DNA of 64,000 nt from Candidatus Woesebacteria bacterium (GCA_050123235.1 JASFHL010000004.1:40558-104557); one strand, 5' to 3'; numbered from the stretch's first letter, positions 10,871 to 50,173 are shown. Numbers and translations are program-made. The notes: a model not told the origin generated them from the letters alone.

Positions 10871-10940
10871 TCTTAGAATAAAATCAAAGAAGGAAAAATA
10901 TAGATTGCTAGATATATATTCTGAAGAAGTGAATAAGCTA

Positions 10941-11098
10941 AAATTTACTATAAATAAATATTGCAGTGTTAAAGCGAGGTCTGGCTAAGCTTAATCTAGC
11001 ACTACATTTACTACCGAGCTTTACTGAGTGAGCTTTATATCTTAAAAATTAATAAGAGGTTGTCGCGAACGACTGCAATATTTATTTATACTAAATTT
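10941..11098 (+). repeat. MITE-like palindromic repeat, full copy A (27-bp TIR, conserved core)
   Basis: TIR aaatttactataaataaatattgcagt / actgcaatatttatttatactaaattt; core gttaaagcgaggtctggctaag...ctaccgagctttactgagtgagc...gcgaacgactg. Confidence 0.8.
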
Positions 11099-11219
11099 GG
11101 ACTGTGTTTTTCGAGCTCAGGATATTTTTTCTTCTTTGACTTTGCTCTAGAAATTGTATTATGATGATTATTAGGCAATAATTTTTGTAAAATTTTAATT
11201 TAGTGAGCAACAAAGAAAT

Positions 11220-12773
11220 ATGACTGATTCCATGAATCCTATGAATCAACAAAGCTCTAATTCAACAGCTAGCAGTAAGCCTAATTCTCAAAACCTCTTC
11301 CAAGGGATAACTAAGAAGATGGCTCAGAATACTAATGTTCAACGCGCAGCATTAAGCCAATTGGGAGCAAGTTCACTAGATAAAGCAAATCCCAACCCAT
11401 CCAGTACAAACAGCCAAAATCTATTAGACTCAATGCCTAGTTCAATAGAGGCAAAACCAAGCCAAGCTCCTATTAAAACAGCATTAAAACAACCATTGCC
11501 TAACACTCCAGCAGATCAAGGTGCAACATTAAAGCAAGCAAGCCCTCCTCCAACTCAAGAAAGTCTTACTGCTCCCAAAACAAAGTCATCAAAAAAAATA
11601 TTTTTAAGTATTGCAGTACTTTTATTTCTTGTATTTGGAGCTGGCGCTGGCTTTATTCTAAGTCAACAGTCACAAGACATTAACCGTCAAGCTACCACTC
11701 CAGAAACTGCCAAACCAACCCTAGCTGTGCTACCTGCCCCTGTTGCCACGCTTTCTGAAAAAGATCAAATTGCTAAAAAGGTACTTACTTGTTTAGACGG
11801 GATGAAGGATAACTCAGGACTTTATCCATATAAACAAAATTGTGACGAAAAAGGTAATTGTGAATCTTTACCAGATAATAATTCTGGTCCACGCCCTATT
11901 TATGCTAGATTTCATTACTACCAAAAAACTAAGGATCCTCAAGAACTTGCTATTTTTAAAAAAGATTTATCAATTAATAATACAGCTGTTTCAGGCATTC
12001 AGAATAACTTCTACAACTGTAAATTAATCGCTGAGATTCAAGCTAGCATTGATGAAATGTGGAACAACAATTTCTTGATGAAGCAAGAAAGAAATCAAGC
12101 TAGAAATATTTGCCTTCTTAGTAAAAACAACCAGCAATTAGAGCAAATCGCAGATCAAAACTTGGACAGTGAATTGGCTAAAAAACCTGATTTTGATCAA
12201 GTATATGACGATCTATCAAGTACAAAGTCAAGTAGTCAAGAAATTTTGCTCAAAACTGACCTCGCTAGTGCTAGCTATTACAGTTCTGAATATGCAGGTC
12301 GTTATTCATTACTCACCCAGAATAGAGAGACTGAATTAAAAAGAGCGATATTCTTTTACAATCAAGCCTTGCTTATGCTCTTTCAAGAAAAACAAACAGC
12401 TAATTTTAAAGATATTTGTACTTTTGGAGAAAGTTCGCTTGATCTCTACAGAGTTACTCAGGATGAGGATTATCTTAAGCTAGCCAAATATCTTTGGAGC
12501 TGGGGTGCTGATCAAACTAGCCATGACTTTTCTACCAAAACAATCTGTGCCTATTTCACTAATAGCCTTTACCAAGAAACACAAGAAGAATCTTATCAAA
12601 CAGCCAGAAGTAATTTAATTAATGATTTGATTGAAAATAATCTTGATAAAACTGGACAAATGAGTTTTGTGACTGGAGATGGCTGTTTTAATTCTGATAA
12701 AGATGCAGCTGGAAAGGTTAGTAAATCAAGTATAGATAATAGCTTATTAGTGAAAGTATTGCTAGCTGAGTAA
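11220..12773 (+). CDS. membrane-anchored secreted protein: Ser/Asn/Pro-rich N-terminal region, TM with 'GFILSQQSQDINRQA' motif, ~370-aa extracytoplasmic domain; no C-terminal anchor motif
   Basis: ORF track protein; shares N-terminal signal-anchor motif with flanking genes. Confidence 0.6.
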   Translation: MTDSMNPMNQQSSNSTASSKPNSQNLFQGITKKMAQNTNVQRAALSQLGASSLDKANPNPSSTNSQNLLDSMPSSIEAKPSQAPIKTALKQPLPNTPADQGATLKQASPPPTQESLTAPKTKSSKKIFLSIAVLLFLVFGAGAGFILSQQSQDINRQATTPETAKPTLAVLPAPVATLSEKDQIAKKVLTCLDGMKDNSGLYPYKQNCDEKGNCESLPDNNSGPRPIYARFHYYQKTKDPQELAIFKKDLSINNTAVSGIQNNFYNCKLIAEIQASIDEMWNNNFLMKQERNQARNICLLSKNNQQLEQIADQNLDSELAKKPDFDQVYDDLSSTKSSSQEILLKTDLASASYYSSEYAGRYSLLTQNRETELKRAIFFYNQALLMLFQEKQTANFKDICTFGESSLDLYRVTQDEDYLKLAKYLWSWGADQTSHDFSTKTICAYFTNSLYQETQEESYQTARSNLINDLIENNLDKTGQMSFVTGDGCFNSDKDAAGKVSKSSIDNSLLVKVLLAE

Positions 12774-12781
12774 AACAAGTA

Positions 12782-13906
12782 ATGAACATTCAAAAAAGCA
12801 GAGCCACCATTAAACGAAGCAAAAAAACTAATCTCAAATTGGTAATAAGTTTATTGTTTATTTTAATGTCAGTGACTGGTTTTTTGGCTGGACTTTATTT
12901 GACTCAGCAAAGACAAGATATTAGACAACAGGCTTATCCTGGGCAAGAATGTGACTATACTTCCCAATGTGATGGCGAAAACGAAGTTTGCAATCCTAAT
13001 ACTCATCGTTGCGAAGGTGGAGTTATCCCAAGTAGCTGTGATTGTACTGCTGCACATACTTGCACCAGTAGCAACCCTAGCTGTGGTAGCTGTGTGCGAT
13101 CGTACTGCTATATTTCACCAGTCACTGGCAACTGTGAACAATGGTGTGAGCCAGTTTGCGGTGATGTCAGTGAAGCATGTGACTTTTATTGTCTAGAATG
13201 TACCAATGCTTCTGATACTTGCGGCCCTCAGCCAACACCTGGCGGCCCGACTCCAACTCCATTCCAACCACCTACAATTACGCCTTATCACACACCGGCT
13301 GTTAGTCCTACACCGACTCCAGCTCAACCAACATCAACTCCGCCCCCAATCTCGAGCCCAACTCCTACAGTGACTGGCGCCCCTAGTTCCACTCCCACAC
13401 CGACTGCCACTTTAAGCCCAACTCCAACCGTGACTGCTAGTCCAACGCCAACTAGTCCTCCTTGGGCCTCACCAACTCCGACTAGCCCACCATGGGCATC
13501 ACCTACCCCCACCAGTCCTCCTTGGGCTTCACCAACTCCGACCTCTCCACCTTGGGTACCAACTAATACTCCAGTGCCTTGGTCAAGTCCGACCCCGATC
13601 GCTTGGACAGTACCAACTAATACTCCTGCTCCATGGGTAGTAGTACCAACTATGATTGATTGTAACTCTATCTGCTACTCTGACTCTGAATGTGCTCAAA
13701 TCGGCTTGATTTGCTATCAAGGCCGCTGCCGCTTGGCTGCTAATCCAGAAGATCAATATTGCCGTCTCCCAGCTAGTGAAGTGATGGTAGAACAACCAGT
13801 TACTCCTGAAGCATTACCAGTTGCTGGCCCAGAAGATTGGCTTAAATACCTGAAGATTGGCCTCAGTGTGCTTGGCATTGGTGCTTTACTCTTCTTGTTA
13901 ATTTAA
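12782..13906 (+). CDS. Cys-rich / Pro-Thr-rich surface protein: TM with 'GLYLTQQRQDIRQQA', Cys-rich domain, PT linker with 4x 'PTPTSPPWAS', C-terminal Cys module 'IDCNSICYSDSECAQ..CRL..NPED..CRLP', 'LPVAGPEDWLKYLK'+TM tail
   Basis: ORF track protein; C-terminal 90 aa paralogous to C-terminus of the 8732-10870 product. Confidence 0.7.
   Translation: MNIQKSRATIKRSKKTNLKLVISLLFILMSVTGFLAGLYLTQQRQDIRQQAYPGQECDYTSQCDGENEVCNPNTHRCEGGVIPSSCDCTAAHTCTSSNPSCGSCVRSYCYISPVTGNCEQWCEPVCGDVSEACDFYCLECTNASDTCGPQPTPGGPTPTPFQPPTITPYHTPAVSPTPTPAQPTSTPPPISSPTPTVTGAPSSTPTPTATLSPTPTVTASPTPTSPPWASPTPTSPPWASPTPTSPPWASPTPTSPPWVPTNTPVPWSSPTPIAWTVPTNTPAPWVVVPTMIDCNSICYSDSECAQIGLICYQGRCRLAANPEDQYCRLPASEVMVEQPVTPEALPVAGPEDWLKYLKIGLSVLGIGALLFLLI
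13441..13560 (+). repeat. intragenic tandem repeats: 4 x 30 bp (PTPTSPPWAS) inside the 12782-13906 CDS
   Basis: ccaac(g/t)cc(a/g)ac(t/c)agtcctccttgggc(c/t)tca units. Confidence 0.75.
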
Positions 13907-14230: not shown

Positions 14231-14304
14231 GCGCGCGTAGCTCAATTGGTTAGAGCACCAAGCTTATACCTTGGTGGTTCCAGGTTCGAGTCCTGGCGCG
14301 CGCA
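14231..14304 (+). tRNA. tRNA-Ile, anticodon UAU (decodes AUA); no encoded CCA
   Basis: Manual cloverleaf fold: acceptor GCGCGCG/CGCGCGC, D-stem GCTC/GAGC, anticodon stem CCAAG/CTTGG with loop cTTATAc, T-arm CCAGG-TTCGAGT-CCTGG, discriminator A. Confidence 0.8.
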
Positions 14305-14362
14305 CAAAAACACTTAAAAAGATATTTCTTGACTTTTGTAATAGAATATATGTGTATTTATT

Positions 14363-20117: not shown

Positions 20118-22451
20118 CTACAGTTTCGCCCTAATTTTCATCTCAGCCTCAACCACTTCTCTGTCCTTACCATATTTAAGTCTAGACAGCTGTTTGATCA
20201 TTTCAGCCATCTTTGGATTCATTCTGGCTTTGACAGCATCCATATCTTTTTCCAAAGACATACTAAAAGCTGTCACTGGCTCATTTTTAACAATTGTTTT
20301 CACGTAAACATGATATTTTTCAATATTGATTAAATCACTTTCATTAAAAGTTGGAGAAAATTCATGTTGCAAAAAGTTGGCATCAGACACACCTACTCTA
20401 AATGAAATCATAGTACCGACGTTACCAAAAACAGCATTTTTTACTTCCTCATCAATCTGACTAATAAACTGGTTAGCGACTGTTAAGTTGAGACGATACT
20501 TTCGCGCCTCAGACAAAATTACAGCAAAATCTTCAGTGGCATAGTTTTGGAACTCGTCAACATATAAAAAGAAATCTTTACGCTGATCCATAGGAATATC
20601 TTGACGACTCATGGCAGCAGTAAGTACTTTTGGCACTAAAATTAAACCTAAAAATTTAGCATCTTCCTCACCTAGCGTACCCTTAGAGAGATTGACTAAA
20701 ATAATTTTTTCTTCATCCATGGCTTTTCTAAAATTAAAAGAGCTCTGCGTTTGACCAATAATATTACGCATGGTTTTATTGGTCACAAAACGGCCAAATT
20801 TAGACACAATATAATCCAAAACTTCTGATTTGTGAAAATCACTAGTTTGTGCCATCTGGTCTGTCCAATATCTTTTCACCACCGGGTCTTTAACAAAAGG
20901 CAACATTTCTTCCACAAATTTCTGGTCTGTCAAAACTCTTACCATTTCGATAAAAGTGGAATTCTGTTTACTCATAATGGTTAACATCGCATTACGAATA
21001 GCGTGTTCAAAACGAGGGCCAATAATACCAGTGCGATGTGGATCGTAAAGCTTGTACATCAATCCAATTACTGAGCTAACCACAAAATGTTTTTGCTCTT
21101 CAGTATCAGCTTCCATAATGTTTAAACCCATTGGGCGCTCTAAATCAGAAGGATTAAAGTAAATTACATCTTCCGCTCTTTCTGGAGGCATCAGTTGCAA
21201 AATATCTTCCACAAACTCACCATGAGGATCAATTGCACAAACACCATGGCCAGCTTCAATATCCTGAAGAATCATTTCTTTAAGAAATTCTGACTTACCT
21301 GTACCAGTTTTACCAATGATATAAGTATGCCTTCTTCTATCATCTAGACCCATATACACTTCTCTGACTTCACCACGATACATTGATCTACCCATATAAA
21401 GACCTTCATTGGGAATTTTATTGGGAGCTGGGGCGTTTTTGGCAGTCAGCCATTTGATATGATGTGTTTCAACAGTTTTATTGGGGAAGTGAAGAATAGT
21501 AGCCAATTCTTCTGTATTTAAAATAGCTGTGCCTCGATTGAAAAGAGGCATATAGCGATAAATAAAATCAATCATAAAAAGGTGTTTGATGAAAACTCTA
21601 GCCTCGGTAAAACTATTGTAAGCTGATTTAAACTGAGCAAAAGCACCTTTAATATTACTCAAATGAGAATCAGCTACTACTTCACTGGGCGAAGAAACAA
21701 CCATTCTGATTGATACTCTAAAGCCTGGTTTTTCTGCCTTGGTATTGATTGCCTCTATCTCTTTAGGGTCATGACTGTAAGTAGCTTTATCAGGGTCAGC
21801 TTCACGCTTTTTTTGTTTTTGTACGTGAGAACGACTTTTTTTCTGCCATTTGTTGCTAACCGGCTGAATTAAGATCTGCAAAATGCCACCTTCACCTTCA
21901 CCCATTTTGGAAAAAGCACTAGTAATAAGGGATAGACCATCAGTTGGCAGATCTTTGTAAGTTTTAATAGGATTGAAATGCTTATCATCCAATTTTAAAG
22001 CTGCTAACGATACTTTACCCTTTTCATTAAAAATATTAATTTCATCAACTTCTTTTATATTTGCCTGAGGATAAGCACCATGGATTTGCTTTTCTACTAA
22101 ATCTTGAATTTTACGCGCGCAACTAAGATAAAAGGCAATCTCTTCTTTAAGACCCACTATTTCAAAACTGATAATGTCATCTGTTTTGAGAAAGCTAGTC
22201 ACTCCAGTTTGTTTTAAAGACGAAAGGCCGGCAAACATTTGCTCAGCGGCATCAACCTTTATTTCATTGTCTTTGGGTACTCTCACTAAAAGAGTGACAA
22301 AGCTTAAAGCATAGTCTTCTCGTTTGCGATGTTTCAGCCACTGGATAAACATATAAGCAAAAACACCTAAGATAAGCCATGTGAGCACAATGGCTATTAA
22401 TAAAACAATTACAGCAATAAACTGGTTGATTAATAAATCAATTTTTCCCAT
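20118..22451 (-). CDS. type IV secretion system ATPase VirB4/TrbE/TraC-like with fused VirB3-like N-terminal TM segment
   Basis: N-terminal 2 TM helices, Walker A 'GKTGTGKS', Walker B-like 'LYVDEFQNY', ~780 aa typical of VirB4. Confidence 0.8.
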   Translation of the reverse strand: MGKIDLLINQFIAVIVLLIAIVLTWLILGVFAYMFIQWLKHRKREDYALSFVTLLVRVPKDNEIKVDAAEQMFAGLSSLKQTGVTSFLKTDDIISFEIVGLKEEIAFYLSCARKIQDLVEKQIHGAYPQANIKEVDEINIFNEKGKVSLAALKLDDKHFNPIKTYKDLPTDGLSLITSAFSKMGEGEGGILQILIQPVSNKWQKKSRSHVQKQKKREADPDKATYSHDPKEIEAINTKAEKPGFRVSIRMVVSSPSEVVADSHLSNIKGAFAQFKSAYNSFTEARVFIKHLFMIDFIYRYMPLFNRGTAILNTEELATILHFPNKTVETHHIKWLTAKNAPAPNKIPNEGLYMGRSMYRGEVREVYMGLDDRRRHTYIIGKTGTGKSEFLKEMILQDIEAGHGVCAIDPHGEFVEDILQLMPPERAEDVIYFNPSDLERPMGLNIMEADTEEQKHFVVSSVIGLMYKLYDPHRTGIIGPRFEHAIRNAMLTIMSKQNSTFIEMVRVLTDQKFVEEMLPFVKDPVVKRYWTDQMAQTSDFHKSEVLDYIVSKFGRFVTNKTMRNIIGQTQSSFNFRKAMDEEKIILVNLSKGTLGEEDAKFLGLILVPKVLTAAMSRQDIPMDQRKDFFLYVDEFQNYATEDFAVILSEARKYRLNLTVANQFISQIDEEVKNAVFGNVGTMISFRVGVSDANFLQHEFSPTFNESDLINIEKYHVYVKTIVKNEPVTAFSMSLEKDMDAVKARMNPKMAEMIKQLSRLKYGKDREVVEAEMKIRAKL

Positions 22452-22452
22452 A

Positions 22453-23562
22453 TTAAGCTTTTTCTTCAGCTGTGCGGTAGATTACCATACCTTTAAACAT
22501 TTTCATAATTTTTCTGCTAAATTCCACTAACCAACGCACACTAAATTTTGGACCTTTCCATTTACCCTTTTTTTCAGTTTTAGTAGTAATTGGAATGACA
22601 ATCACCGGCTTAGATGGCATTTGTGCTGGAGCAGGTAACTCTTCAGTGCCATCAGCCAAAACGACTTCCTGTGGTGGTAAAGTCGATTCATCTTTCACTT
22701 CTTGTAAAAAAGCTTCAACTTCAGGAGTAATCTCTGGGCTAGGAACTGGAGGCTCAACTTCAACTTGGCCCAGACCCGTCCCGGCATCAACTAGAGCCTG
22801 ATCTGGGCTAACAGCAGCATCAACTTTTTCTTTAACGCTACGTCCTGCATAGGCAGTGGCCAGTTGATCGTCTGCCTGATCAGCAGCTTGAGTAACTGCT
22901 GTGGGCACGGCTTGAGCGATGGCAGCAGGAATTGGGCTAGTGCTTGTTGGAGTAGTACTAGGACTGACGGCTGCCTGCGGCTGACCAGGCCTTGCCTGGG
23001 CTTGTGCTAATGGAGGGACTTTAGCAGTGTTGACTGGCGGGGTTGTAGTTGCTGCGACTTTGCTGCCTGGAGCTTGTGCTGCTGCCAAACCAGTAGTTAT
23101 TGTAACTGGGGCAGGAGTTTTAAGTTTCGCTGTCAGTTTTTTATCTGCAGCAATTTTCTGTTTTTTCTTTTGTTTCACAGTGCTGAGTAATGACTCTAGG
23201 GCATCCAGAGGAGATTGAGCTGGTTTTTGCGTAGTGCTTTGCCGAACTTTTGTTAGTGCTTGACTAGGCGAAGTAGTGATATTTGCTTTTGGACTTGCAG
23301 TTTGGATTTTATCAGCCCGCTGACTTGCTACATCATCTAGAACTTCCTCTAGAATATCTAATTTTCTGGCTGTAGAAATCTGTAGCTTAGTAGTTTGTGT
23401 ATCTTGAGTAGTTTGCTTTAGCTGAGTGGCTTGAGCAGCTGGAACTTGAGGTGAAATCGTTGCTTGCTGGTCATTAGAAGCTAAGCGAGAAGAAGAAGCT
23501 TGCCCAATATTTTGAGAAGACTGATTGTTCAGCGTTGGTTGAAATAATGATTGGTCTGTCAC
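22453..23562 (-). CDS. Pro/Ala/Thr/Gln-rich low-complexity protein, translationally coupled to VirB4 (stop/start 1 nt apart); GTG start
   Basis: ORF track; conserved-looking basic C-terminal ~50 aa. Confidence 0.5.
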   Translation of the reverse strand: MTDQSLFQPTLNNQSSQNIGQASSSRLASNDQQATISPQVPAAQATQLKQTTQDTQTTKLQISTARKLDILEEVLDDVASQRADKIQTASPKANITTSPSQALTKVRQSTTQKPAQSPLDALESLLSTVKQKKKQKIAADKKLTAKLKTPAPVTITTGLAAAQAPGSKVAATTTPPVNTAKVPPLAQAQARPGQPQAAVSPSTTPTSTSPIPAAIAQAVPTAVTQAADQADDQLATAYAGRSVKEKVDAAVSPDQALVDAGTGLGQVEVEPPVPSPEITPEVEAFLQEVKDESTLPPQEVVLADGTEELPAPAQMPSKPVIVIPITTKTEKKGKWKGPKFSVRWLVEFSRKIMKMFKGMVIYRTAEEKA

Positions 23563-33434: not shown

Positions 33435-35339
33435 CTACCCTCTAATCCTCTCAATCTCCTCCGCCGTAGTCACATCTTCCCAACCTTTATCTTTTCTAAA
33501 CTTCACCAATCTTGGAAAACGCAAAGCCACGCCCGCACTGTGAGCTGGAGATTTAGTAATAGCGTCAGCTGCTATTTCCACTACAATTTTGGGAGCGACC
33601 CAGACATCAGGTTTTAAATTCTTATTTACCTGATATGCTGCTGGTTTTTTTCCCACTTTAGCTTCATCGCAACGTTTTTTCATTTGTCGCAATTGCTCAT
33701 CAGTGAGCCCAGTGCCTATTTTAGCAATGGTAGTAATTTTTTCCTCTTTATCCAAAATCCCAGCCAAAAAAGCACCCATTCCAAAACTAGCTCTTTTACC
33801 ACGACCACGATAATAACCCATCACTAGTAAATCAAGCGTATCTCGCAATTGACCGTGCTTACCTTCTTCTTCTTTAATTTTGACCCAACGCCAACCCTTT
33901 CGCCCACTACGATAAACACTGTCGATGCGCTTGATTACTGCCCCTTCTAATCCTAAAGCCAATTGCTCTTCATGAAATTTTCTAAGTTTTTCTGCATCAG
34001 TAGTTTTTAAAAATGGAGTTTGTTGTAAAACTTGATTATTTTTAAAAAGTTTTTTAAGTATTTTTTTTCTTGATAACAAATCTTTGTTCAATAAGGATTT
34101 ATCATCAACTGCCAAAACATCAAATACATAAAAACGAATTGGTAATGTTTCAGCCTTCTTACCTACATGATGCTTACGTTTACGAGTGATAGTTTCTTGA
34201 AAAGATAAAATCTTAGCTGTTTTTTTATCTATCCCTACTGCCTCAGCATCTAAAATACAGGACGAACAATTAATTTTATCCAAAATCCTGCTTAACTCCG
34301 GAAACATGTGTGAAGCATTATCCAAGTTGCGAGTAAAAACTGCCACAGACAAAGACTTAGATTGCGTGGATTTTTTTTGATCTGACTCTAATGCTGCTGC
34401 AGCTAAATTTCTCTTTTTATTAATATGGATTTGCACTCGCAAGCCATCATATTTTGGTTCAGCCAGGACTTCATGCATTTTTTCAATGATCTCAGCTGCA
34501 GAATTTAAACGCTGACAAAGTGCTGGCATCACTGGCACACCCACTTCAATTGCATAACTAGCCAAAAATTTTTCAATTTCTTTTTGAGTAGCCTTTTTGC
34601 CTAACTGAACTAAAAGATAGCCTTTAGCTAATTTACCAATATCAGCTTTTTTTTGATAAGCTTCATCTAAAACTTGATTATCAGATTTATTGCCATGTTT
34701 AGCCCATGATAAAGCATCAATCATAGTCATGGTGGAAAAACCTAAACGCAATTTGCCAATAATAATTCTAATCACAAATTTGGCGGAAATTGCATCAAGC
34801 TTAGCTAAAAGTTCCACAGTGCCTTTAATTTTTCGTTCCTGTGAGCCTGTACCAGCTTCTTTGGCAATTAAAAGCAGCTCTTGGTAAACTTGATTTAAAG
34901 AAGTCTTAGCTTTTAAAGATAATTTTGCTGATTCCACAATTTTCTCACCCACCAAACCTAAATCCCCCATTTTCTTATATTGCTTCCAGACTTTTGTTTC
35001 ATAAAAACTAAAGTCTGATTCATTAAAAAGATTAACAGTATTAGCTGAAGCAGGAGAAGCTTGTGAACGATGTTTAGCTGAATCTTTTTTGAGTCTTGCC
35101 TCTAATCTGGCTAAAACTCTAATCAACATTTTTACAGATAAATTAAATTCTAAAGACTCATACTTAGGGACTAATTTCCCTTGCATTAAATAACAAGCTG
35201 CTTCTATTTCTGACTGTTCAAGTTTCTTAAATAAGTCTGCCAATTGTACTGTCATGGTGAGGCGAGAAGAGGTTTTTTCTAGTTTTTGTAGGTAAGAGGC
35301 GAATTCTTTAAAAGTCATAGTTTCAGATATAAAGCTCAA
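33435..35339 (-). CDS. ATP-dependent DNA ligase
   Basis: Adenylation motif I 'KYDGLRVQIH', OB-fold region; size 634 aa. Confidence 0.85.
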   Translation of the reverse strand: MSFISETMTFKEFASYLQKLEKTSSRLTMTVQLADLFKKLEQSEIEAACYLMQGKLVPKYESLEFNLSVKMLIRVLARLEARLKKDSAKHRSQASPASANTVNLFNESDFSFYETKVWKQYKKMGDLGLVGEKIVESAKLSLKAKTSLNQVYQELLLIAKEAGTGSQERKIKGTVELLAKLDAISAKFVIRIIIGKLRLGFSTMTMIDALSWAKHGNKSDNQVLDEAYQKKADIGKLAKGYLLVQLGKKATQKEIEKFLASYAIEVGVPVMPALCQRLNSAAEIIEKMHEVLAEPKYDGLRVQIHINKKRNLAAAALESDQKKSTQSKSLSVAVFTRNLDNASHMFPELSRILDKINCSSCILDAEAVGIDKKTAKILSFQETITRKRKHHVGKKAETLPIRFYVFDVLAVDDKSLLNKDLLSRKKILKKLFKNNQVLQQTPFLKTTDAEKLRKFHEEQLALGLEGAVIKRIDSVYRSGRKGWRWVKIKEEEGKHGQLRDTLDLLVMGYYRGRGKRASFGMGAFLAGILDKEEKITTIAKIGTGLTDEQLRQMKKRCDEAKVGKKPAAYQVNKNLKPDVWVAPKIVVEIAADAITKSPAHSAGVALRFPRLVKFRKDKGWEDVTTAEEIERIRG

Positions 35340-42862: not shown

Positions 42863-43411
42863 TTATTTTTCTAATAACAAATATAACTCCCTAAATTCTT
42901 TTCTTGCCCTAAATAAATCTGACTCCACTGACTTTGTAGTTCTGCCTAGCCTTTTGGCAATCTCTTTAACTTTTTTCTTATCTACATACTTAAGTAAAAG
43001 AAGCTCTCTTTTTTCTTTCATCATCTTTTTTAGAACTTCTTTAACTTTATTTGAAGTCTCATGAGAATCATTAACCGGAGACTTCAATAATAATTCACCA
43101 AGTGGTAAAGTTCTAATCGCTTTTTTAGCATAAAGCTTACGATAATAGTCTGCAATTTCATGTCTCAAGATAGCAATCATCCAACTCTGTAAACTAGATT
43201 TTTCTTGAAAAAGAGTCGCGTTTTTCAAACAACTAATAAAGGTTTCTTGAACTAGCTCCTCCGCATCTTCCGTTGTTTTTACTTTTTTCAGAGCTATATT
43301 CAATAAAATTGGCTGATAAGACAGAAACCATTGTTTAATGGCAGCAGCATTTCCTCTTTTTATTTGGGAAATTAACTTTAAATCATTAAGCTGCTTATTT
43401 TTCTTAGACAT
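42863..43411 (-). CDS. RNA polymerase sigma factor, sigma-70 ECF subfamily
   Basis: Region 2 'LVQETFISCLKN...SWMIAILRHEIADYYR' and region 4 HTH 'VKEIAKRLGRTTKSVESDLFRARK'. Confidence 0.8.
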   Translation of the reverse strand: MSKKNKQLNDLKLISQIKRGNAAAIKQWFLSYQPILLNIALKKVKTTEDAEELVQETFISCLKNATLFQEKSSLQSWMIAILRHEIADYYRKLYAKKAIRTLPLGELLLKSPVNDSHETSNKVKEVLKKMMKEKRELLLLKYVDKKKVKEIAKRLGRTTKSVESDLFRARKEFRELYLLLEK

Positions 43412-43433
43412 AAAAATTGTATAATACTATTAT

Positions 43434-43781
43434 ATGCTATTAAACTTAATTTCCAAAGTTTATGCTCAAAATACTGGTGTTTCCGAACTTGACCTAAGTA
43501 AACAGCTTAAGCTTAATACGACAGAAGCTGTAGCTGATAAATATGATAATCCAATGACTTTAATTAACTTGCTTGTTCCCACCGTCTTTGTAATTGCAGG
43601 AATTATCTTTTTTATTCTCATTATTGTGGCTGGCTACAAATACATTGCCAAAGGTCAAAAAGGAATTGATGAAGCCAAAAGCCTTATTGGGGCAGCTGTA
43701 GCCGGTTTCATGCTGATGTTTGCAGCTTACTGGATTATTCAAATTATCAAAGGAATAACTGGGGCAGATATTCCTATTTAA
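43434..43781 (+). CDS. VirB2/TrbC-like small two-TM protein (T4SS pilin candidate), paralog 1
   Basis: TM1 - short basic loop ('KGQKGIDEAKS') - TM2; tandem paralog family. Confidence 0.5.
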   Translation: MLLNLISKVYAQNTGVSELDLSKQLKLNTTEAVADKYDNPMTLINLLVPTVFVIAGIIFFILIIVAGYKYIAKGQKGIDEAKSLIGAAVAGFMLMFAAYWIIQIIKGITGADIPI

Positions 43782-43884
43782 AGTTTTGATACCCTACAGA
43801 TTTAAGTTTCGAAATTAAAAAAGAGCCTTGCCCCCTGAAAAATAAATTTTTGTTATAATAGCTTGATTGACAAACTGACTGAAG

Positions 43885-44340
43885 ATGAAAAAAACTTTTT
43901 TAAATAAAACTCTGCAAAAAAAAACTTTTCCAAAAATCATAAGTTTATTTATATTTATTAATTTATTAATTAGTTCAATTTTCCCGGACGCAGCTTTGGC
44001 AGCAGATGATGTTTTAGGAGGAAAAATTAAACCTCCACCGGGAGTAGAAAAATATAACGTAGGAGGAAGAATTGGTATTATTGTTTTTATTTCCAATTTA
44101 ATTAAAGTGGCAACTGTAGTTGCTGGCATCTGGGTATTAATCAATGTTATTTTAGCTGGCTGGAAATACATCACTTCAAGTGGTGACTCTAAAGCTCACG
44201 GAGAAGTAAGTAGCAAAATTACTTACAGTATCATTGGCCTCGTTATTATTGTGCTAGCCTATACTATTACAGCTTTAATTAGTTTAATTATTTTTGGTGA
44301 TGCAGGCTTTATTTTGAATCCACAAATAGAAGGTATTTAA
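43885..44340 (+). CDS. VirB2/TrbC-like pilin candidate, paralog 2 (signal peptide ...ALA|A)
   Basis: signal peptide + 2 TM, loop 'SSGDSKAHGE'. Confidence 0.5.
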   Translation: MKKTFLNKTLQKKTFPKIISLFIFINLLISSIFPDAALAADDVLGGKIKPPPGVEKYNVGGRIGIIVFISNLIKVATVVAGIWVLINVILAGWKYITSSGDSKAHGEVSSKITYSIIGLVIIVLAYTITALISLIIFGDAGFILNPQIEGI

Positions 44341-44344
44341 AAAC

Positions 44345-44731
44345 ATGTTAATTAATCTTTATACTTTAGTTGCAAATAACCTTGATTTTGGCACAGGCTT
44401 TGAACCCCCTTCTACTGCCTATAGTGAAGGATCAACAACTCAAGAAGGTGCTATTAAAAACTTAGAATTATTTCTTTCCAATTTAATTGGTTTTTTGACT
44501 ATTTTAGCTAGTCTTTTCTTTTTAGTTTATTTTTTTGTTGCTTCTTTTCAGTGGGTTACTTCTGGAGGTGACAGTGGTAAAGCTCAAAAAGCTAGAGACC
44601 GCATGCTCCAAGGAGCTCTAGGACTAATTATTATAATAGCGGCTTATTCCATCATCGGCCTGATTGGTAAAATCGTTGGCTTAGACATTCTTAACCCAAG
44701 AGAAGCAATTGAAAGAATTATTCCAACATAA
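44345..44731 (+). CDS. VirB2/TrbC-like pilin candidate, paralog 3
   Basis: 'FQWVTSGGDSGKAQKARDRMLQGALGLIII' family motif. Confidence 0.55.
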   Translation: MLINLYTLVANNLDFGTGFEPPSTAYSEGSTTQEGAIKNLELFLSNLIGFLTILASLFFLVYFFVASFQWVTSGGDSGKAQKARDRMLQGALGLIIIIAAYSIIGLIGKIVGLDILNPREAIERIIPT

Positions 44732-44764
44732 AGTTTTAAAGTTAGCGAAAAATTCAAAAAAAAT

Positions 44765-45220
44765 ATGAAAAAAAACAACAATAGATTAAACACAAAAACT
44801 AAAAAACTAGGCATTGCATTAATCGCTGGTCTAGTTGGTTTGAAAAAATTAATCAGCGCCAAGCTAACTCAAGCTCAGATCACTAATCCAGCCTTAAAAG
44901 AAGATTCCGTGATTAATAAATATGAAAGTGCTGAATCGGGAGAAGCTTTTTTTGACTATTTTGCCATGCTCTGGCGTTCAGCTCTTAGCATGGGAATTTT
45001 AGTTGTTTTAGTTTTTTTTCTTTGGGGTGCTTTTGAATGGATGACAGCTGGCGGCGATAGTGCTAAAGTCCAAAAAGCCAGAGATAGGATTATAAATGCC
45101 ACTATTGGTCTAATTATCATGGCTAGTATTTTTGCCATTGTTGGCTTCTTTGGAGAGCTATTCTTTGGCGAAGACTTTAATATTTTAGAATTTACTTTCC
45201 CAACTCCATCAGGAACCTAA
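44765..45220 (+). CDS. VirB2/TrbC-like pilin candidate, paralog 4
   Basis: 'FEWMTAGGDSAKVQKARDRIINATIGLIIM'. Confidence 0.55.
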   Translation: MKKNNNRLNTKTKKLGIALIAGLVGLKKLISAKLTQAQITNPALKEDSVINKYESAESGEAFFDYFAMLWRSALSMGILVVLVFFLWGAFEWMTAGGDSAKVQKARDRIINATIGLIIMASIFAIVGFFGELFFGEDFNILEFTFPTPSGT

Positions 45221-45224
45221 AACT

Positions 45225-45557
45225 ATGATCACAACAATTGCGCAAGTCACCATTGATTTACAAGAAAAGGTAGCCAAGGAAGGAGTGCCTTTCGCAGAAG
45301 AAGAAGGCGGCGAAGGCATGGCTGTTTTGATTAGTAGAATGATGACCCTTGCCATGGTTGCTGCTACTATTCTTGTTTTACTTTATTTAATCTGGGGAGC
45401 CATAGAATGGATCACCTCTGGAGGTGACAGTGGTAAAGTCCAAAAAGCCAGAGATAAAATCATTCAAGCAATAATTGGGCTTTTGGTTCTATCTGCTAGC
45501 GGAGCTTTAATTATGTTAATTCAAAACTTTTTGGGCATTGAAGTGTTAGAATTTTAG
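45225..45557 (+). CDS. VirB2/TrbC-like pilin candidate, paralog 5
   Basis: 'IEWITSGGDSGKVQKARDKIIQAIIGLLVL'. Confidence 0.55.
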   Translation: MITTIAQVTIDLQEKVAKEGVPFAEEEGGEGMAVLISRMMTLAMVAATILVLLYLIWGAIEWITSGGDSGKVQKARDKIIQAIIGLLVLSASGALIMLIQNFLGIEVLEF

Positions 45558-45677
45558 CGACTCTTAAATAAAAACCAAATAATAAGAGTGAACTGATTGA
45601 CAGACGAAAAAAAATCTTGATATGATATAATTTAGAAAAAGAATTTTGATTTTAAAAACAATTAAAAAGGAGAAACA

Positions 45678-46082
45678 ATGAAAAGAATCCAAAAACTTGC
45701 TATTTCAGCTGGGTCTGTTTTAACAACTTTACAAATGACAGCTGTCTCCGCGCACGCAGCCATTACTGCTAAAAAAATCAGTCCAGGAACTGGTTATTCA
45801 ACTGATATTGGAGCAATGATCAATGGTTTGCTTAGAATCGTGATGGTCATAGCCGCTTTGCTTGTTTTTGCTTATTTAATTTGGGGTGGTATTGAATGGA
45901 TTACATCAGGTGGTGACAAAGGCAAAACCGAAAATGCTAGAAACAAGATTACTCAAGCAGTAATTGGTTTAGTTGTGATCGCTGCTTCTTATGCTATCTT
46001 AACTCTAGTGTTGAACTTCCTTGGCTTTGAAGAAGGCCTAGACACTGTTTTCCAACAAGATATTAATCTTTCCGGAGAATAA
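45678..46082 (+). CDS. VirB2/TrbC-like pilin candidate, paralog 6 (signal peptide ...AHA|A)
   Basis: 'IEWITSGGDKGKTENARNKITQAVIGLVVI'. Confidence 0.55.
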   Translation: MKRIQKLAISAGSVLTTLQMTAVSAHAAITAKKISPGTGYSTDIGAMINGLLRIVMVIAALLVFAYLIWGGIEWITSGGDKGKTENARNKITQAVIGLVVIAASYAILTLVLNFLGFEEGLDTVFQQDINLSGE

Positions 46083-46100
46083 AAATTATTTAGAAATTAG

Positions 46101-46127
46101 AAAAAGCCTCCGTATGGAGGCTTTTTT
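46101..46127 (+). terminator. rho-independent terminator (bidirectional A-tract/stem/T-tract)
   Basis: aaaaaGCCTCCgtatGGAGGCtttttt directly after paralog 6 stop. Confidence 0.75.
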
Positions 46128-46272
46128 GGTTTTATTGATATCTAAGACTTATAGAAATTTTAAAAAAAAGTTGTTTGAAATATTACTAAAACTAAAAAAA
46201 CCACCACAGAAGATTTATTCTATAATTGAGGTTATAATAAAATTGTTTTAAAATCCCAATTATTAGATCAAT

Positions 46273-46716
46273 ATGAAAAAAAAGCTTAAATCATTACAAA
46301 CTTTTATCTTTAGTCTCAGCTTATTGTTCATCCCTTTTTTCCTTCCTTCTCAATCTTACGCGCAAACTAGCACTTGGGAGGGCGTCTGTGTGGGACCCAC
46401 TGAAAAATCAAGTGATGTAGCTACCATCCAAGGAGCCCAATGTCTAATCGCTAATATTTTTTCCGTGGCTATTACCTTAATTGGCTTAGTCGGCTTTATA
46501 ATGTTAATTTTTGCTTCTTTAAAATGGATGCTAGCGGGCACTAATGCTCAAAACAAAGATAAAGCTCGAAATATGGCTGTTTATGCTTTTGTTGGTTTAA
46601 TTGTAGCTCTCTGTTCATTTATGATTTTGAAGTTAGTTTCAGACTTCACCGGAGTAAAAACAATTCTTAACTTCAGCATTCCCAGTTCTGATATTAATTG
46701 GGAAGAAAGACTTTAA
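46273..46716 (+). CDS. VirB2/TrbC-like pilin candidate, divergent paralog 7 (signal peptide, 2 Cys)
   Basis: 'LKWMLAGTNAQNKDKARNMAVYAFVGLIVAL'. Confidence 0.45.
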   Translation: MKKKLKSLQTFIFSLSLLFIPFFLPSQSYAQTSTWEGVCVGPTEKSSDVATIQGAQCLIANIFSVAITLIGLVGFIMLIFASLKWMLAGTNAQNKDKARNMAVYAFVGLIVALCSFMILKLVSDFTGVKTILNFSIPSSDINWEERL

Positions 46717-46748: not shown

Positions 46749-47732
46749 CTAAAATAAATGTTCTTCAATAAACTGAGGCTTTTCCCCTACCTTAGCTGTA
46801 ATTACTTTTTTAACCAAATCTAAATTCTTCAAACGCTTTTCAACAATTGCTTCAAATTTGGGTAAAGTCATCACGTGAACATTAAAACCTGTATTAATTG
46901 TAAAATAAGCTTCAATCCCCTCTTTCCTCATTTTTTGCACTTCATGCATTACTTGAAGCGTACCGGGATACCAGAAAATTAAAGGTGGCTGACTAGTTAG
47001 TAAGATACTGTGAAACTCCAAAGCTTCTGCCTCAATTAATTCCCCCAATTTTCTAAAATCTCTATCTTTAATAGCATCTTTAATTTGAAATATTTTCTTT
47101 TTTATATTTTGTAACCTCGCTGGATAAAAAAGACTTGTACCAGCTTTTTTGTGTCCTGCTGTGCTCGAAACTTCTTTTCTACTAGTGCTCACTACCGCCA
47201 CCATATCTCTCAAATCCCAATGATTGGCTAGAAAAATTGTTTCTGAAAAAGATGTCTTAGAAGTGTTGCCATCTTTCCACTCAACAAAGCCAGCACAAGC
47301 GCAACGACAAGCAGTTCCAGAGGCTTGTCGCCCCAGAATACTTAATTCCTTTTCTGATAAATTTAAATCTAAAGCTTTACTAGCAGCATAAGTCAAAGCC
47401 GCCATCCCTGAGCCAGAACTTGATAAACCCGTGCTTCTCGGGAAGTTGTTTTCAGAAATAACTTTAGCAAAAATATTTTTATTAGCCAGTTTCCTAATTC
47501 TATTTAGTTGCTTGACCACTCTGGCTGCTTCTCTACCTTCTGCCTTTTTCCCTGCTATTTTAATTTCATCTGCTTTTAACTTGGAATCAAAATCTACAGT
47601 GGTAGTTGTTTCCAGACCAGCCAAAACCATGGAAATACTACCATTTTCTGGCAAACGCAAAATTTCATTTTTTTTCCCCCAATATTTGATAAAGGCAATA
47701 TCAGGAGATGCTTTGACTGTTGTTTTATGCAT
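46749..47732 (-). CDS. mvaD: diphosphomevalonate (or phosphomevalonate) decarboxylase, GHMP kinase family
   Basis: 'DIAFIKYWGKKNEILRLPENGSISMVL' N-terminal signature. Confidence 0.8.
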   Translation of the reverse strand: MHKTTVKASPDIAFIKYWGKKNEILRLPENGSISMVLAGLETTTTVDFDSKLKADEIKIAGKKAEGREAARVVKQLNRIRKLANKNIFAKVISENNFPRSTGLSSSGSGMAALTYAASKALDLNLSEKELSILGRQASGTACRCACAGFVEWKDGNTSKTSFSETIFLANHWDLRDMVAVVSTSRKEVSSTAGHKKAGTSLFYPARLQNIKKKIFQIKDAIKDRDFRKLGELIEAEALEFHSILLTSQPPLIFWYPGTLQVMHEVQKMRKEGIEAYFTINTGFNVHVMTLPKFEAIVEKRLKNLDLVKKVITAKVGEKPQFIEEHLF

Positions 47733-47773
47733 ATTCTTTTATTAAGCGATGTAAGAGTAATGAAGTTAGAGTT

Positions 47774-47910
47774 ATATTAAAAACAGAATACGTTCGCTGT
47801 AACATTTTTTTATTTTTAAAAAACTAGGCTCACTTGGTGAAGCTCGGCAGTATACAAAGTGCTAACTTAAATCTAGCTAGACCTCGCTTCAACACTCTGT
47901 TTTTAATATA
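47774..47910 (-). repeat. MITE-like palindromic repeat, full copy D (reverse orientation)
   Basis: Reverse complement aligns to core; TIR tatattaaaaacagaatacg / actctgtttttaatata. Confidence 0.75.
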
Positions 47911-47913
47911 ATT

Positions 47914-48921
47914 CTAATTCTCTAGCCTTACTCCCTCAACATCTAAATTTACTTTAATTAGTTTACCACCGGCGTTTTTCAGGCTAGCAGCAACTTTTTC
48001 AATCTTGGATTCTTCTGCTACAGCAATCATACAATCCCCTCCTCCAGCTCCAGACAATTTAGCTCCTGTTGCTCCAGCTTTTTCTGCTGCCCTAATCAGT
48101 TTTTCTAACTCTAAACTGCTTACTTCCAATTTTCTTAACAAAGTCTGATTTGCTTTCATTAAATCTCCTAGTTTTTTTATGTCGTTGCTTGCCAAAACTT
48201 TCTTAGCCTGTTCTACAATCCTATCAATTTCTTCAAAAACCTCCCCTATTTTCACTGGATTTTTATCTTTTAAGTTAGCAACCATTCTAATCAAAGTTGG
48301 AGTGTCAGCTTTAACGCCAGTATAGCCTACTAATAATGGCAAGTTCTTGATTTGAATTGTTTCCACCTTATCAGCTGGGGGCACATAATAGATTGTGCCT
48401 CCCCAAATTGCGGCTGCGAGATCAAAACCAGATCCTACGCCTTGTACCTCCAAAACAGCTTGATAACAAAGATCAAATAGCTCTTTTTTGCTTAAATTAA
48501 AACCATATAAAGTAGTTAATGCCTTAGCAAAGGCCACAGTCACAGCACTACTAGAACCAAAACCAAAAGAGCTGGAGAAATCACTCTTTGTAATCACATG
48601 AACACCCTTCTTCTGAGGATATTTTTCCAAAAAGCGTTTATACAAAGTTTCTACAAAACGCACAGACTTCGGAGGTTTTTTGCCCAAATCTGCTATTGTC
48701 TTAGAATAAATCTTTAAACCCAAATCAGGAGCTTCCAAAGAAAAAACATCATTTCCATTTTGTTTTACAGTCACAAATAGATGCTGATCTACAGCTGTCA
48801 CAATACAGGGATGGCCATGAACGACACTATGTTCGCCAAAAAGCATTAATTTTCCTGGAGCTGAAGCAGTGACTGCTTTCATAAGACATATATTATAGTC
48901 GTAAAAATTGGAGAAAATCAT
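47914..48921 (-). CDS. mvk: mevalonate kinase (GHMP kinase)
   Basis: 'SAPGKLMLFGEHSVVHG', GHMP motif 'GFGSSSAVTVAF'. Confidence 0.8.
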   Translation of the reverse strand: MIFSNFYDYNICLMKAVTASAPGKLMLFGEHSVVHGHPCIVTAVDQHLFVTVKQNGNDVFSLEAPDLGLKIYSKTIADLGKKPPKSVRFVETLYKRFLEKYPQKKGVHVITKSDFSSSFGFGSSSAVTVAFAKALTTLYGFNLSKKELFDLCYQAVLEVQGVGSGFDLAAAIWGGTIYYVPPADKVETIQIKNLPLLVGYTGVKADTPTLIRMVANLKDKNPVKIGEVFEEIDRIVEQAKKVLASNDIKKLGDLMKANQTLLRKLEVSSLELEKLIRAAEKAGATGAKLSGAGGGDCMIAVAEESKIEKVAASLKNAGGKLIKVNLDVEGVRLEN

Positions 48922-48966
48922 GCAAGTAAATTTTTAGCCGACGGCTCTCAAACTACTTGATTAATT

Positions 48967-49173
48967 TTAGTTTTTCTCATCACTCTTTCTCTGACCATTT
49001 CTCAAAACCTTATAAACAACTTGGACTCCCAGTTGTGTGGCAGCATCAAACACTCCTCTAACAATGATAACGTCTTTCCCTTTTCCATTTAAAATAACAG
49101 TCTGCTTATCTGGGCGCAAAGCATAGCGCCAAGCTTGTCCTCTCCAGTTTGAAATATGTTCCGAATTTCCCAC
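48967..49173 (-). CDS. hypothetical small protein (68 aa), possibly spurious or a remnant
   Basis: ORF track only. Confidence 0.2.
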   Translation of the reverse strand: MGNSEHISNWRGQAWRYALRPDKQTVILNGKGKDVIIVRGVFDAATQLGVQVVYKVLRNGQRKSDEKN

Positions 49174-49366
49174 AATACTCCTCTCTAAAGCTGGCCAGCA
49201 AAAATTGCTAAGTTAAAATTTTTAAAATATTAATTTTTTCCAAAGACAACAATTTAGTCGCTAAAAATTAAGAAAAACATTCAAAGTAATAAAGAAGCTT
49301 TGTCCTGTAAAGAGACAAGTTTATGCTTAATCTAAGTTTCTCAGACTGAAAAATTATCTTTTCTAT

Positions 49367-50173
49367 TTAAGAAAGAAGCTCCTTCAAATTCTTTTCCAAA
49401 CGCCCATCTTGCGCCATCATAATTGTCCACGGAACCAGCTCGATGGTTTTTTCCGATATATCAACTGTTTTGCCGCCAACCCTCTTTCTTAACTGAGTTA
49501 AGTTCATGGTTAGACTGTCTTTTGGATCAGGCATTTCAACTAGTCGCATTTTTGCTAATAATTCATTTAAATTAAACCAAGCTACTTCAGAAACCTCATC
49601 AGGATTAATCTTTACTTTGCCGTTGTATTTACCAATAAAAACTTTATCAATTTCATGTTCGGAGTATTGCTCATTACCATAAGCTTTATAAGAAAAAGTG
49701 TAAATAGGTTTTAATTGCAGCAATTTCTTTTTTGCTGTCTTCTCACTAAGGCCCTCTCTATCTTTTTGCCCATACACCGGTTTTTTTCCACCGCGCTTGC
49801 ATCCGCCATCAGCACTGTTATCCTTTTTACTATTTTCCCCCATCAAAACTTTTTCCATTCCCAATTCTTCTTTTAATCTTCTGAAAGCACAAGCTTTATA
49901 GCTCTCCCCCAAGCGAACATTGCCACAAATAGTATTAGCCCATAAACCAGCCCCTACAATTTTCTTCTTACTTCTTTTTTGAAATAAAACCTCTCCGTTA
50001 TCATTAATCAACCACACAGAAACAGCGCGATGCAATTTGGGAGGATTTTCATGTACTTGATATTTCTCCATTACTCCAATTTCACGATCATCCTGATCAA
50101 CCAGAGCTAGTTTTTCTTGAATTTTTGATTTCATAATCTGAATAATTGTAATATATTTGGATAATTTTAGCAT
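49367..50173 (-). CDS. idi: isopentenyl-diphosphate delta-isomerase type 1 (Nudix) with ~40-aa Gly/Lys-rich insertion
   Basis: 'LHRAVSVWLINDNGEVLFQKRS', Nudix box 'GESYKACAFRRLKEELGM'. Confidence 0.75.
   Translation of the reverse strand: MLKLSKYITIIQIMKSKIQEKLALVDQDDREIGVMEKYQVHENPPKLHRAVSVWLINDNGEVLFQKRSKKKIVGAGLWANTICGNVRLGESYKACAFRRLKEELGMEKVLMGENSKKDNSADGGCKRGGKKPVYGQKDREGLSEKTAKKKLLQLKPIYTFSYKAYGNEQYSEHEIDKVFIGKYNGKVKINPDEVSEVAWFNLNELLAKMRLVEMPDPKDSLTMNLTQLRKRVGGKTVDISEKTIELVPWTIMMAQDGRLEKNLKELLS

Follow-up and report, generated by a model that had tools for sequence, protein, structure and literature searches.

A conserved seven-gene array of VirB2-like proteins beside a sigma-factor module in a Candidatus Woesebacteria genome

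Tandem arrays of related pilin-like genes raise the question of whether the copies are kept as a source of sequence variation or as separate parts of a single assembly. One such array, of seven genes that we call p1 to p7, lies within a 64,000-nucleotide stretch of Candidatus Woesebacteria bacterium DNA (GCA_050123235.1, JASFHL010000004.1:40558-104557), hereafter the window, which is low-GC DNA (about 33% GC) of a Patescibacteria genome. An earlier note on this sequence had proposed that the array generates pilin variation through gene conversion. We find instead that the paralogues date far back, keep their order and are each conserved, which argues for a heteromeric assembly in which one subunit is the major one. 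It seems to us reasonably likely that the locus encodes a fixed heteromeric set of seven VirB2-like subunits, with p6 the major one, serving the Patescibacteria type IV secretion system (T4SS); we infer the individual roles, and the pilus itself, from sequence. For the essential T4SS and its pilin series in Patescibacteria, published speculation favours antigenic or host-range variation, whereas this locus and about 80 relatives point the opposite way.

Positional orthology and gene conversion

Four loci with homologues of the sigma factor encoded divergently from p1 (54–69% identity) all contain recF, a transmembrane (TM) protein of about 118 residues, the sigma factor, the divergent seven pilin-like genes and uppS, and in all four the seven genes follow the same order of sizes. 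A further small protein was called in three of these loci, and a search with a hidden Markov model (HMM) recovered a small open reading frame (ORF) in the fourth too. When the array proteins were compared all against all, 135 of 140 best cross-genome hits fell at the same array position, the exceptions being swaps between p5 and p6 only. Paralogues within one genome share only about 33% local identity.

A wider scan, made with a p6 profile on one genome per GTDB species and followed by an HMM for each array position, gave 80 loci. Pacebacteria, Woesebacteria, Microgenomates and the Patescibacteria group appear in their titles, and many titles of metagenome-assembled genomes (MAGs) are mislabelled; many GTDB representative MAGs that carry the array, for instance, appear as “uncultured Pseudomonadales bacterium”, “Vitreimonas sp.” or “Limisphaerales bacterium” (among loci L006–L085). 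The order p1 to p7 is kept throughout the 80 species representatives. Complete arrays, 61 in number, hold 7 to 12 genes, chiefly through duplication of p2 and p6; written by position, the arrangement is 1234567 in 17 of them, 122345667 in 11, 12345667 in 6 and 12234567 in 5.

Orthologue identity at the canonical loci is highest for p6 (62%) and lies between 47 and 54% for the others, close to the values for the flanking recF (53.5%), sigma factor (54.9%) and uppS (57.9%), so the array genes evolve like the neighbouring housekeeping genes, at a pace that does not exceed that of recF or uppS. For one related species that is well sampled, the neighbourhood is common to 23 of 25 contigs, and two full-length variants differ by two single-nucleotide polymorphisms in 10.4 kb. 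The seven proteins would thus be anciently diverged, positionally orthologous subunits that are not interchangeable, with their order kept and purifying selection acting on each.

The earlier note had drawn attention to perfectly identical DNA blocks of 22–24 nucleotides (nt) among p3, p4 and p5. Those of 22 nt and 23 nt are real (Table 1), while the 24-mer as typed is mismatched at its first base. The two real tracts overlap within p5, which makes its positions 45417–45456 a mosaic of p3 and p4. In 5000 simulations that resampled codons but left the amino acids unchanged, 1.2–2.2% gave an identical run of 22 nt or longer in any one pair of paralogues and none gave it in two pairs, and the blocks therefore exceed chance; elsewhere in the paralogues the sharing of synonymous codons matches the expectation from codon usage. 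Comparing paralogues of different classes, with physical overlaps removed, we found that 13 of 83 genomes have perfectly identical tracts of 22 nt or more; these measure 22–52 nt, the longest being of 47–52 nt. Nearly all of them cover the segment encoding EWITSGGDKGKxExARN, with a nucleotide sequence that is different in each genome.

Constraint at the nucleotide level was considered as the cause of the blocks and rejected, since the tract sequence varies among genomes while the encoded peptide stays constant, a pattern that points to recurrent short-tract conversion within genomes. The blocks look like footprints of gene conversion between paralogues. The earlier note had taken them for ideal substrates of such conversion, but a 22-nt identity within DNA that is about 65% identical is the product of conversion and makes a poor substrate for any further recombination. 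Being limited to a loop that the paralogues already have in common, the conversion homogenises, and the positional orthology indicates that exchanges outside the loop are not retained. Conversion would then be tolerated only in the common loop-coding segment.

Family membership and membrane topology

All seven ORFs are present in tandem on the plus strand, as the earlier note had described, and encode proteins of 110–151 residues, each with two strong hydrophobic segments and a short polar loop between them by hydropathy. An identical contig of 9.8 kb was found in run SRR11698124. The variable leader or signal peptide that had been attributed to all seven is a Sec-type N-terminal signal in p2, p4, p6 and p7 and a short leader only in p1, p3 and p5; the loop motif, read here as W[IVM]T[SA]GGD[SK][GA]K..[KN]AR[DN], holds strictly in p3 to p6 and is degenerate in p1, p2 and p7.

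The earlier note had suggested a check against T4SS pilin families; of these, PF18895 (T4SS_pilin, gathering threshold 26.6 bits) is matched by five of the seven (p3 to p7, 29–41 bits), p1 and p2 falling short. Profiles of p1 and p2 orthologues nevertheless align with the p6 family in hhalign (96.7% probability, E 3e-10, and 96.9%, E 1.5e-10, respectively), as does the p7 profile (98.7%), and these three matches span the core from the first TM segment (TM1) through the loop to the second (TM2). The PF18895 scores and the hhalign links together place all seven in one superfamily. A similar check against TrbC/VirB2 (PF04956, threshold 27.9 bits) gave scores below the cut-off for p1, p3, p6 and p7 (17.6–18.2 bits) and no match for the others, and a few database homologues of p6 match both PF18895 and PF04956. 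The top NCBIfam match for all seven is NF045849, a pilin-like family of the Mycoplasma integrative and conjugative element (ICE), with 34.4 bits (E 1e-8) for p6 against a cut-off of 40.

An AlphaFold2 model of p6 has a signal helix followed by a hairpin of helices 44–76 and 81–114 (pLDDT >90) with the SGGD turn between them; fold searches were non-specific, the fold being a generic TM hairpin. The predicted topology is VirB2-like: both termini would lie outside and the cytoplasm would contain the basic SGGDxGKxxKAR loop, as suggested by the positive-inside loop, the acidic C-terminal tails and the extracytoplasmic Cys pair of p7. The pair falls within a conserved segment, WxGVCV...ATIQGxQCLxAN, that follows the signal peptide and precedes TM1; it may form a disulfide outside the cytoplasm and point to a specialised role, for instance as a tip or adaptor.

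The leaders of p1, p3 and p5 are very short, uncharged and end in [IVY]AQ, for example MLLNLISKVYAQ and MITTIAQ (window 43434–45557; arrays L002–L005). Most of the long Sec-type signals of p2, p4, p6 and p7 also end directly before Q. Mature T-pilin of Agrobacterium has an N-terminal Gln, which these leader and signal ends may recall.

Transcription layout and the sigma module

The expression signals of the array are concentrated at p6. A TTGAC-N16-19-TAnAAT element lies 5′ of p6 in 41 of 60 loci and in none of the shuffled sequences, p6 has the sole strong Shine-Dalgarno site of the array (aaggag), and hairpin terminators follow it in most related loci. The strong promoter, ribosome-binding site, terminator and top conservation make p6 the likely major subunit, which would be abundant and monocistronic and is duplicated in many relatives; p1 to p5, together with the Cys-pair protein p7, would be accessory or minor subunits of low abundance. 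A 45-residue ORF called between p6 and p7 in locus L001 overlaps the terminator and was not taken as a gene, and an Rfam search of the region gave no RNA family.

The remaining genes are laid out differently. In 39 of 45 loci p1 has an in-frame start with an exact TATAAT 4–14 nt (mode 8–9) 5′ of it, so near to the ATG that the p1 transcript appears to be leaderless. Genes p1 to p5 are closely packed, with median gaps of 5–18 nt in related loci, and an extended -10 element before p2 would allow p2 to p5 to form a unit apart from p1 in this genome. For p7 there is a -10-like promoter of its own. The pilin promoters would thus seem to be of the housekeeping type. The earlier note had envisaged a promoter upstream of position 43434 dependent on an extracytoplasmic function (ECF) sigma factor, whereas the conserved elements are sigma-70-type, either TATAAT or TTGAC-N17-TATAAT. 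Motifs of the canonical ECF consensus, AAC...CGT, were at or below shuffled expectation upstream of sigma, p1, p6 and p7 (48–80 loci), where sigma-70-type elements are strongly enriched, though the specificity of this sigma factor of the candidate phyla radiation (CPR) may be TATAAT-like instead.

That a divergent ECF sigma factor adjoins the array is confirmed by its scores (Sigma70_r2 52.8, r4_2 43.7 and TIGR02937 82.2 bits, the last against a cut-off of 42.9), and Pfam finds regions 2 and 4 only in the protein. The start codons of sigma and p1 are 22 bp apart, the spacing given in the earlier note, and the small TM partner noted there corresponds to a tail-anchored protein of 60 residues encoded directly downstream. 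In relatives this protein is kept directly 3′ of sigma, at 58–105 residues, and its gene often overlaps the stop codon of sigma. Neither Pfam nor NCBIfam matches it, an HxxxCxxC (ZAS) motif is absent, and it is a candidate anti-sigma factor. The third gene of the module, tm118, belongs to a family with a near-invariant GLLLHPYQTMQSLV motif and conserved Cys residues, represented by 51 ORFs near sigma in related loci, in every case third in the module, and matched by no Pfam or NCBIfam model. The sigma, tail-anchored protein and tm118 genes travel together across loci.

Sigma divergently adjoins p1 in 43 of the 61 complete arrays, with 3–244 bp between the starts, and the other 18 have no adjacent sigma. 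The adjacency persists while the outer flanks (recF, uppS and others) change, which argues for a functional coupling, not necessarily for direct activation. In many loci the p1 -10 element reads TGgTATTAT on the opposite strand, just 5′ of the sigma start, and divergent transcription of the three-gene sigma module would start from a -10 element adjoining or overlapping the p1 one. Such an arrangement suggests coupled or mutually exclusive initiation. The divergent start codons lie at the centre of symmetry of an 18-nt inverted repeat (43364–43381 and 43440–43457, 89% complementary), with the effect that both proteins begin ...L(K/N)LIS(Q/K)... As a conserved element the repeat was rejected, the best repeats in 45 loci being no better than random controls (means of 11.16 and 11.15 of 16 matches), and it is probably due to chance or specific to the lineage.

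Secretion-system context and related systems

The ATPase about 21 kb from the array, which the earlier note had called VirB4, is a VirD4-like coupling protein: its top matches are TraD and the VirD4-like CD1115 in NCBIfam and DotL and TrwB in the PDB, with VirB4 models scoring far lower. No VirB4 is encoded within the 64-kb window. The T4SS core looked for elsewhere in the genome is represented by a VirB4 ATPase just past the right end of the window, scoring 379.5 bits with NF045971 (the VirB4-like CD1110 family, cut-off 325), on a contig that joins the window through dnaA with an identical overlap of 3590 nt. It is about 16–17 coding sequences (CDS) from p7, a distance below the 20 CDS used in PMC12102498, and the operons are separate. 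Just past recF, the closest relative (L002) encodes a large M23 peptidase and has genes of the TrsD-like and PrgI-like kinds. A tblastn search with TrsD-like, PrgI-like and coupling proteins found core genes within 9 kb of the array in only 1 of about 85 loci, this one and no other, and Pfam scans of the window from 29.6 to 40.7 kb found no T4SS genes and gave housekeeping functions only (Carb_kinase, Fic, DNA ligase, glycosyltransferases). The locus would thus be an origin-proximal, chromosomal cluster of structural genes for VirB2-like proteins of a Patescibacteria-type T4SS in a host of the Microgenomates group, and the VirB4/TrsD machinery encoded beside dnaA may assemble the products into a pilus-like or conduit structure.

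The proposal that the paralogues are a reservoir from which conversion makes mosaic pilins for immune or host-range evasion, floated also in PMC12102498, would account for the 22–23-nt identical tracts that exceed chance, for tracts of up to 52 nt in other genomes, for copy numbers of 7 to 12 among species and for the strong divergence of paralogues within a genome. We regard it as very improbable, because that divergence is ancient and orthologous (135 of 140 hits at the same position), the order is conserved, the rates are no higher than those of recF or uppS, and the tracts lie in the conserved loop, away from the variable termini. Moreover, no copy is broken, the gene-initial ones (p1, p6 and p7) have promoter-like elements that are conserved, nothing has the look of a silent cassette, and the array of the well-sampled relative is near-invariant over 25 contigs; the comparison among MAGs, which the earlier note had itself suggested, gave for relatives the kind of result that it had named as refuting the proposal. 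The sigma factor might alternatively activate the array directly as an ECF regulon, the tail-anchored protein holding it inactive until a signal from the envelope or from host contact arrives. Divergent adjacency maintained through rearrangements of the outer flanks, and the joint movement of the three module genes, speak for such a regulon, but the elements 5′ of p1, p6 and p7 are canonical for sigma-70, the AAC...CGT motif is not enriched (a consensus that may not be that of this CPR sigma) and 18 of 61 arrays manage without an adjacent sigma, so that we consider direct activation unlikely.

A slightly better case, though one that we still doubt, can be made for a structure other than a pilus, namely a heteromeric inner-membrane complex acting as a channel, an assembly platform or in lipid handling, with or without the T4SS. 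The fixed membership of seven distinct subunits is unlike VirB2 pili, which are homopolymeric, a VirB5-like tip protein is missing, uppS often adjoins the array, T4SS core genes rarely do, and the fold is generic. Set against this are the PF18895 membership with its sub-threshold links to TrbC/VirB2 and NF045849, the expression signals of p6, which are those of an abundant structural protein, and the homologous series of Saccharibacteria, which is essential and lies inside the T4SS cluster (PMC10633639). The fixed set of VirB2-like T4SS subunits has its own difficulties: PF04956 scores are about 18 bits against a cut-off of 27.9, p1 and p2 alone fail the PF18895 cut-off, the promoter calls are consensus matches alone, and, with core genes near to the array in so few loci, the T4SS link is one of homology and chromosomal neighbourhood and not of a shared operon. 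To our knowledge, moreover, no pilus has been seen in any Patescibacterium. We regard as improbable, though a little less so than the last of the alternatives, a fuller version in which a T4SS filament or conduit consists of seven non-redundant subunits (p6 as the major one and six specialised ones) and its expression is coupled to the sigma module through mutually exclusive -10 elements set back to back, a toggle that might be linked to attached and free lifestyles. Known VirB2-type pili are homopolymers, and if this were true a seven-subunit VirB2-like architecture would be without precedent. In cultivable relatives p6, p7 and the sigma module offer concrete targets.

Table 1. Features of the array, the sigma module and their surroundings (window positions)
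Feature	Position	Strand	Remarks
Three Cys-, Pro- and Thr-rich surface proteins	8732-10870, 11220-12773, 12782-13906	+	No Pfam match
VirD4/TraD-like coupling ATPase, 777 aa	20118-22451	-	N-terminal TM region; link to array uncertain
tm118, polytopic membrane protein, 128 aa	42252-42638	-	Third gene of sigma module; conserved HPYQTMQ motif and Cys
Small tail-anchored protein, 60 aa	42666-42848	-	Amphipathic N-terminal helix, C-terminal TM
ECF-type (group 4) sigma factor	42863-43411	-	Divergent from p1; Sigma70_r2, r4_2, TIGR02937
Back-to-back -10 boxes	TATAAT 43420-43425; 43434-43429	+; -	8 nt before p1 ATG; 17 nt before sigma ATG
p1	43434-43781	+	Pilin-like, short leader; PF18895 17.3 bits, below threshold
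Extended -10, TGtTATAAT	43851-43859	+	25 nt 5′ of p2; consensus match only
p2	43885-44340	+	Pilin-like, Sec-type signal peptide; PF18895 23.2 bits, below threshold
p3	44345-44731	+	Pilin-like, short leader; PF18895 32.1 bits; 22-nt block 44561-44582 identical to p5 45417-45438
p4	44765-45220	+	Pilin-like, signal peptide; PF18895 32.1 bits; 23-nt block 45064-45086 identical to p5 45434-45456
p5	45225-45557	+	Pilin-like, short acidic leader; PF18895 29.0 bits; 45417-45456 a p3/p4 mosaic
p6 promoter, sigma-70-type, strong	45597-45631	+	TTGACA-N18-TATGAT, overlapping TGaTATAAT; 11/12 matches to consensus
p6	45678-46082	+	Candidate major subunit; top PF18895 score, 40.8 bits
Intrinsic terminator after p6	46100-46127	+	Perfect 12-bp GC-rich hairpin, then T run
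p7	46273-46716	+	Pilin-like, signal peptide, two invariant Cys before TM1; PF18895 30.3 bits
dnaA	61982-63550	-	About 15 kb from array
VirB4, 715 aa	65139-67286 (window-equivalent)	-	Beside dnaA (just upstream), past right end of window; NF045971

Several neighbouring genes deserve mention in their own right. In the region that takes in VirB4 (L086 265–3805; window-equivalent 63746–67286), a protein of 444 residues with a twin-arginine-like signal, a GTSxA motif and a subtilase-like look is encoded between dnaA and VirB4, and upstream of VirB4 lies the C-terminal end of a low-complexity protein, possibly a TrsD-like partner. The coupling ATPase abuts, 1 nt apart and on the same strand, a low-complexity protein of 369 residues rich in Q, A, P and T (the two span 20118–23562, minus strand), beside uppS. 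As uppS abuts the pilin array in most relatives and sits here by the coupling ATPase, a rearrangement in this genome is suggested. ORFs of 712, 517 and 374 residues at 8.7–13.9 kb were considered as VirB4 or VirB6 and rejected, since a P-loop is absent and the products are surface proteins rich in Cys. That stretch (8732–13906) is locally richer in GC, at 0.39–0.41 compared with about 0.33; two of the three proteins end in LP[SV][SA]GP[AE]DWLKYLK and a hydrophobic tail, which resembles a sortase-type signal, and the third gene encodes four SPTPTSPPWA repeats. The sole tRNA in the 64 kb is a tRNA-Ile with anticodon TAT (UAU) at 14231–14305 (plus strand), an anticodon with which AUA would be read directly and no lysidine-modified CAU tRNA would be needed. 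At 2735–3712 (plus strand), in a cluster rich in glycosyltransferases at 1.5–7 kb, a protein matches PF03214, “reversibly glycosylated polypeptide”, with 191 bits; this family is best known from plants. Genes flanking the locus include an ATP-dependent DNA ligase of the archaeal/eukaryotic type (33435–35339, minus strand) and, from the mevalonate pathway, diphosphomevalonate decarboxylase, mevalonate kinase and IPP isomerase (46749–50173, minus strand).

Arrays of this type have already been described. In Southlakia epibionticum an essential series of predicted pilins was reported from inside the T4SS cluster (Wang et al. 2023, PMC10633639; see also PMC12857230), and Quiñonero-Coronel et al. 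(2025, PMC12102498) collected 441 arrays of 2–11 pilin genes from 383 assemblies by means of PF18895 and PF04956. These occur especially in Microgenomatia and Saccharimonadia, with a mean within-array identity of 25% and a T4SS that is often near dnaA, and antigenic variation or host adaptation was proposed; a 2025 review regards such proteins as possible pili of a monoderm T4SS. Our array resembles those published (for instance the SEML1_0006-0019 region of S. epibionticum ML1; PMC12102498, PMC10633639) in its PF18895 membership and tandem divergent paralogues, its Microgenomatia-enriched distribution, its chromosomal location near dnaA and the MPF-FATA-type VirB4 of the genome, and differs in lying outside the T4SS cluster, with VirB4 some 16–17 CDS off. 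The words “sigma”, “ortholog”, “promoter” and “recF” do not occur in the text of PMC12102498, nor does “sigma” in that of a Patescibacteria perspective (PMC11665869), and our literature search found no paper tying sigma factors to Patescibacteria pilin arrays. Positional orthology, the p6-centred layout, the divergent sigma module and loop-restricted conversion are thus absent from PMC12102498, and the orthology, sigma linkage and transcription layout are incremental additions to a known type of array.

Outside Patescibacteria a comparison can be made with the Mbov_0395/MMCAP2_0565 family of pilin-like conjugal transfer proteins (NF045849) of the Mycoplasma ICE, where the protein accompanies a VirB4 family (NF045975) that also matches the VirB4 of this genome with 265 bits, although all scores here are under the curated cut-offs (40 for NF045849, 590 for NF045975). 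There the gene is single-copy and on a mobile element, whereas here a set of seven is chromosomal. The VirB2, TrbC and TraA conjugative pilins of diderm T4SS (PF04956) are similarly small, with a two-helix hairpin, a short basic loop and a predicted N-out/C-out topology, and their long signal peptide has a counterpart in four of the seven proteins. A classical pilus of this kind is a homopolymer built from a single VirB2 and has a VirB5 tip, in contrast to seven obligate paralogues and no VirB5 in what is here a monoderm-type cell.

The VirB2 clusters of Bartonella and Anaplasma and the pilE/pilS genes of Neisseria likewise combine tandem paralogues of a pilin family with evidence of conversion. 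Diversification of surface-exposed sequence has been proposed for the former and shown for the latter, whereas in the present array conversion is found only in a conserved loop that is predicted to be cytoplasmic, and the paralogues are orthologous across species. Type IV pili and the pseudopili of type II secretion differ in fold and assembly (N-terminal class III signal, PilD, PilB), and no homology is implied, but as a functional analogy only they resemble the arrangement proposed here, that of one highly expressed major subunit with an ordered series of minor subunits of the same fold.

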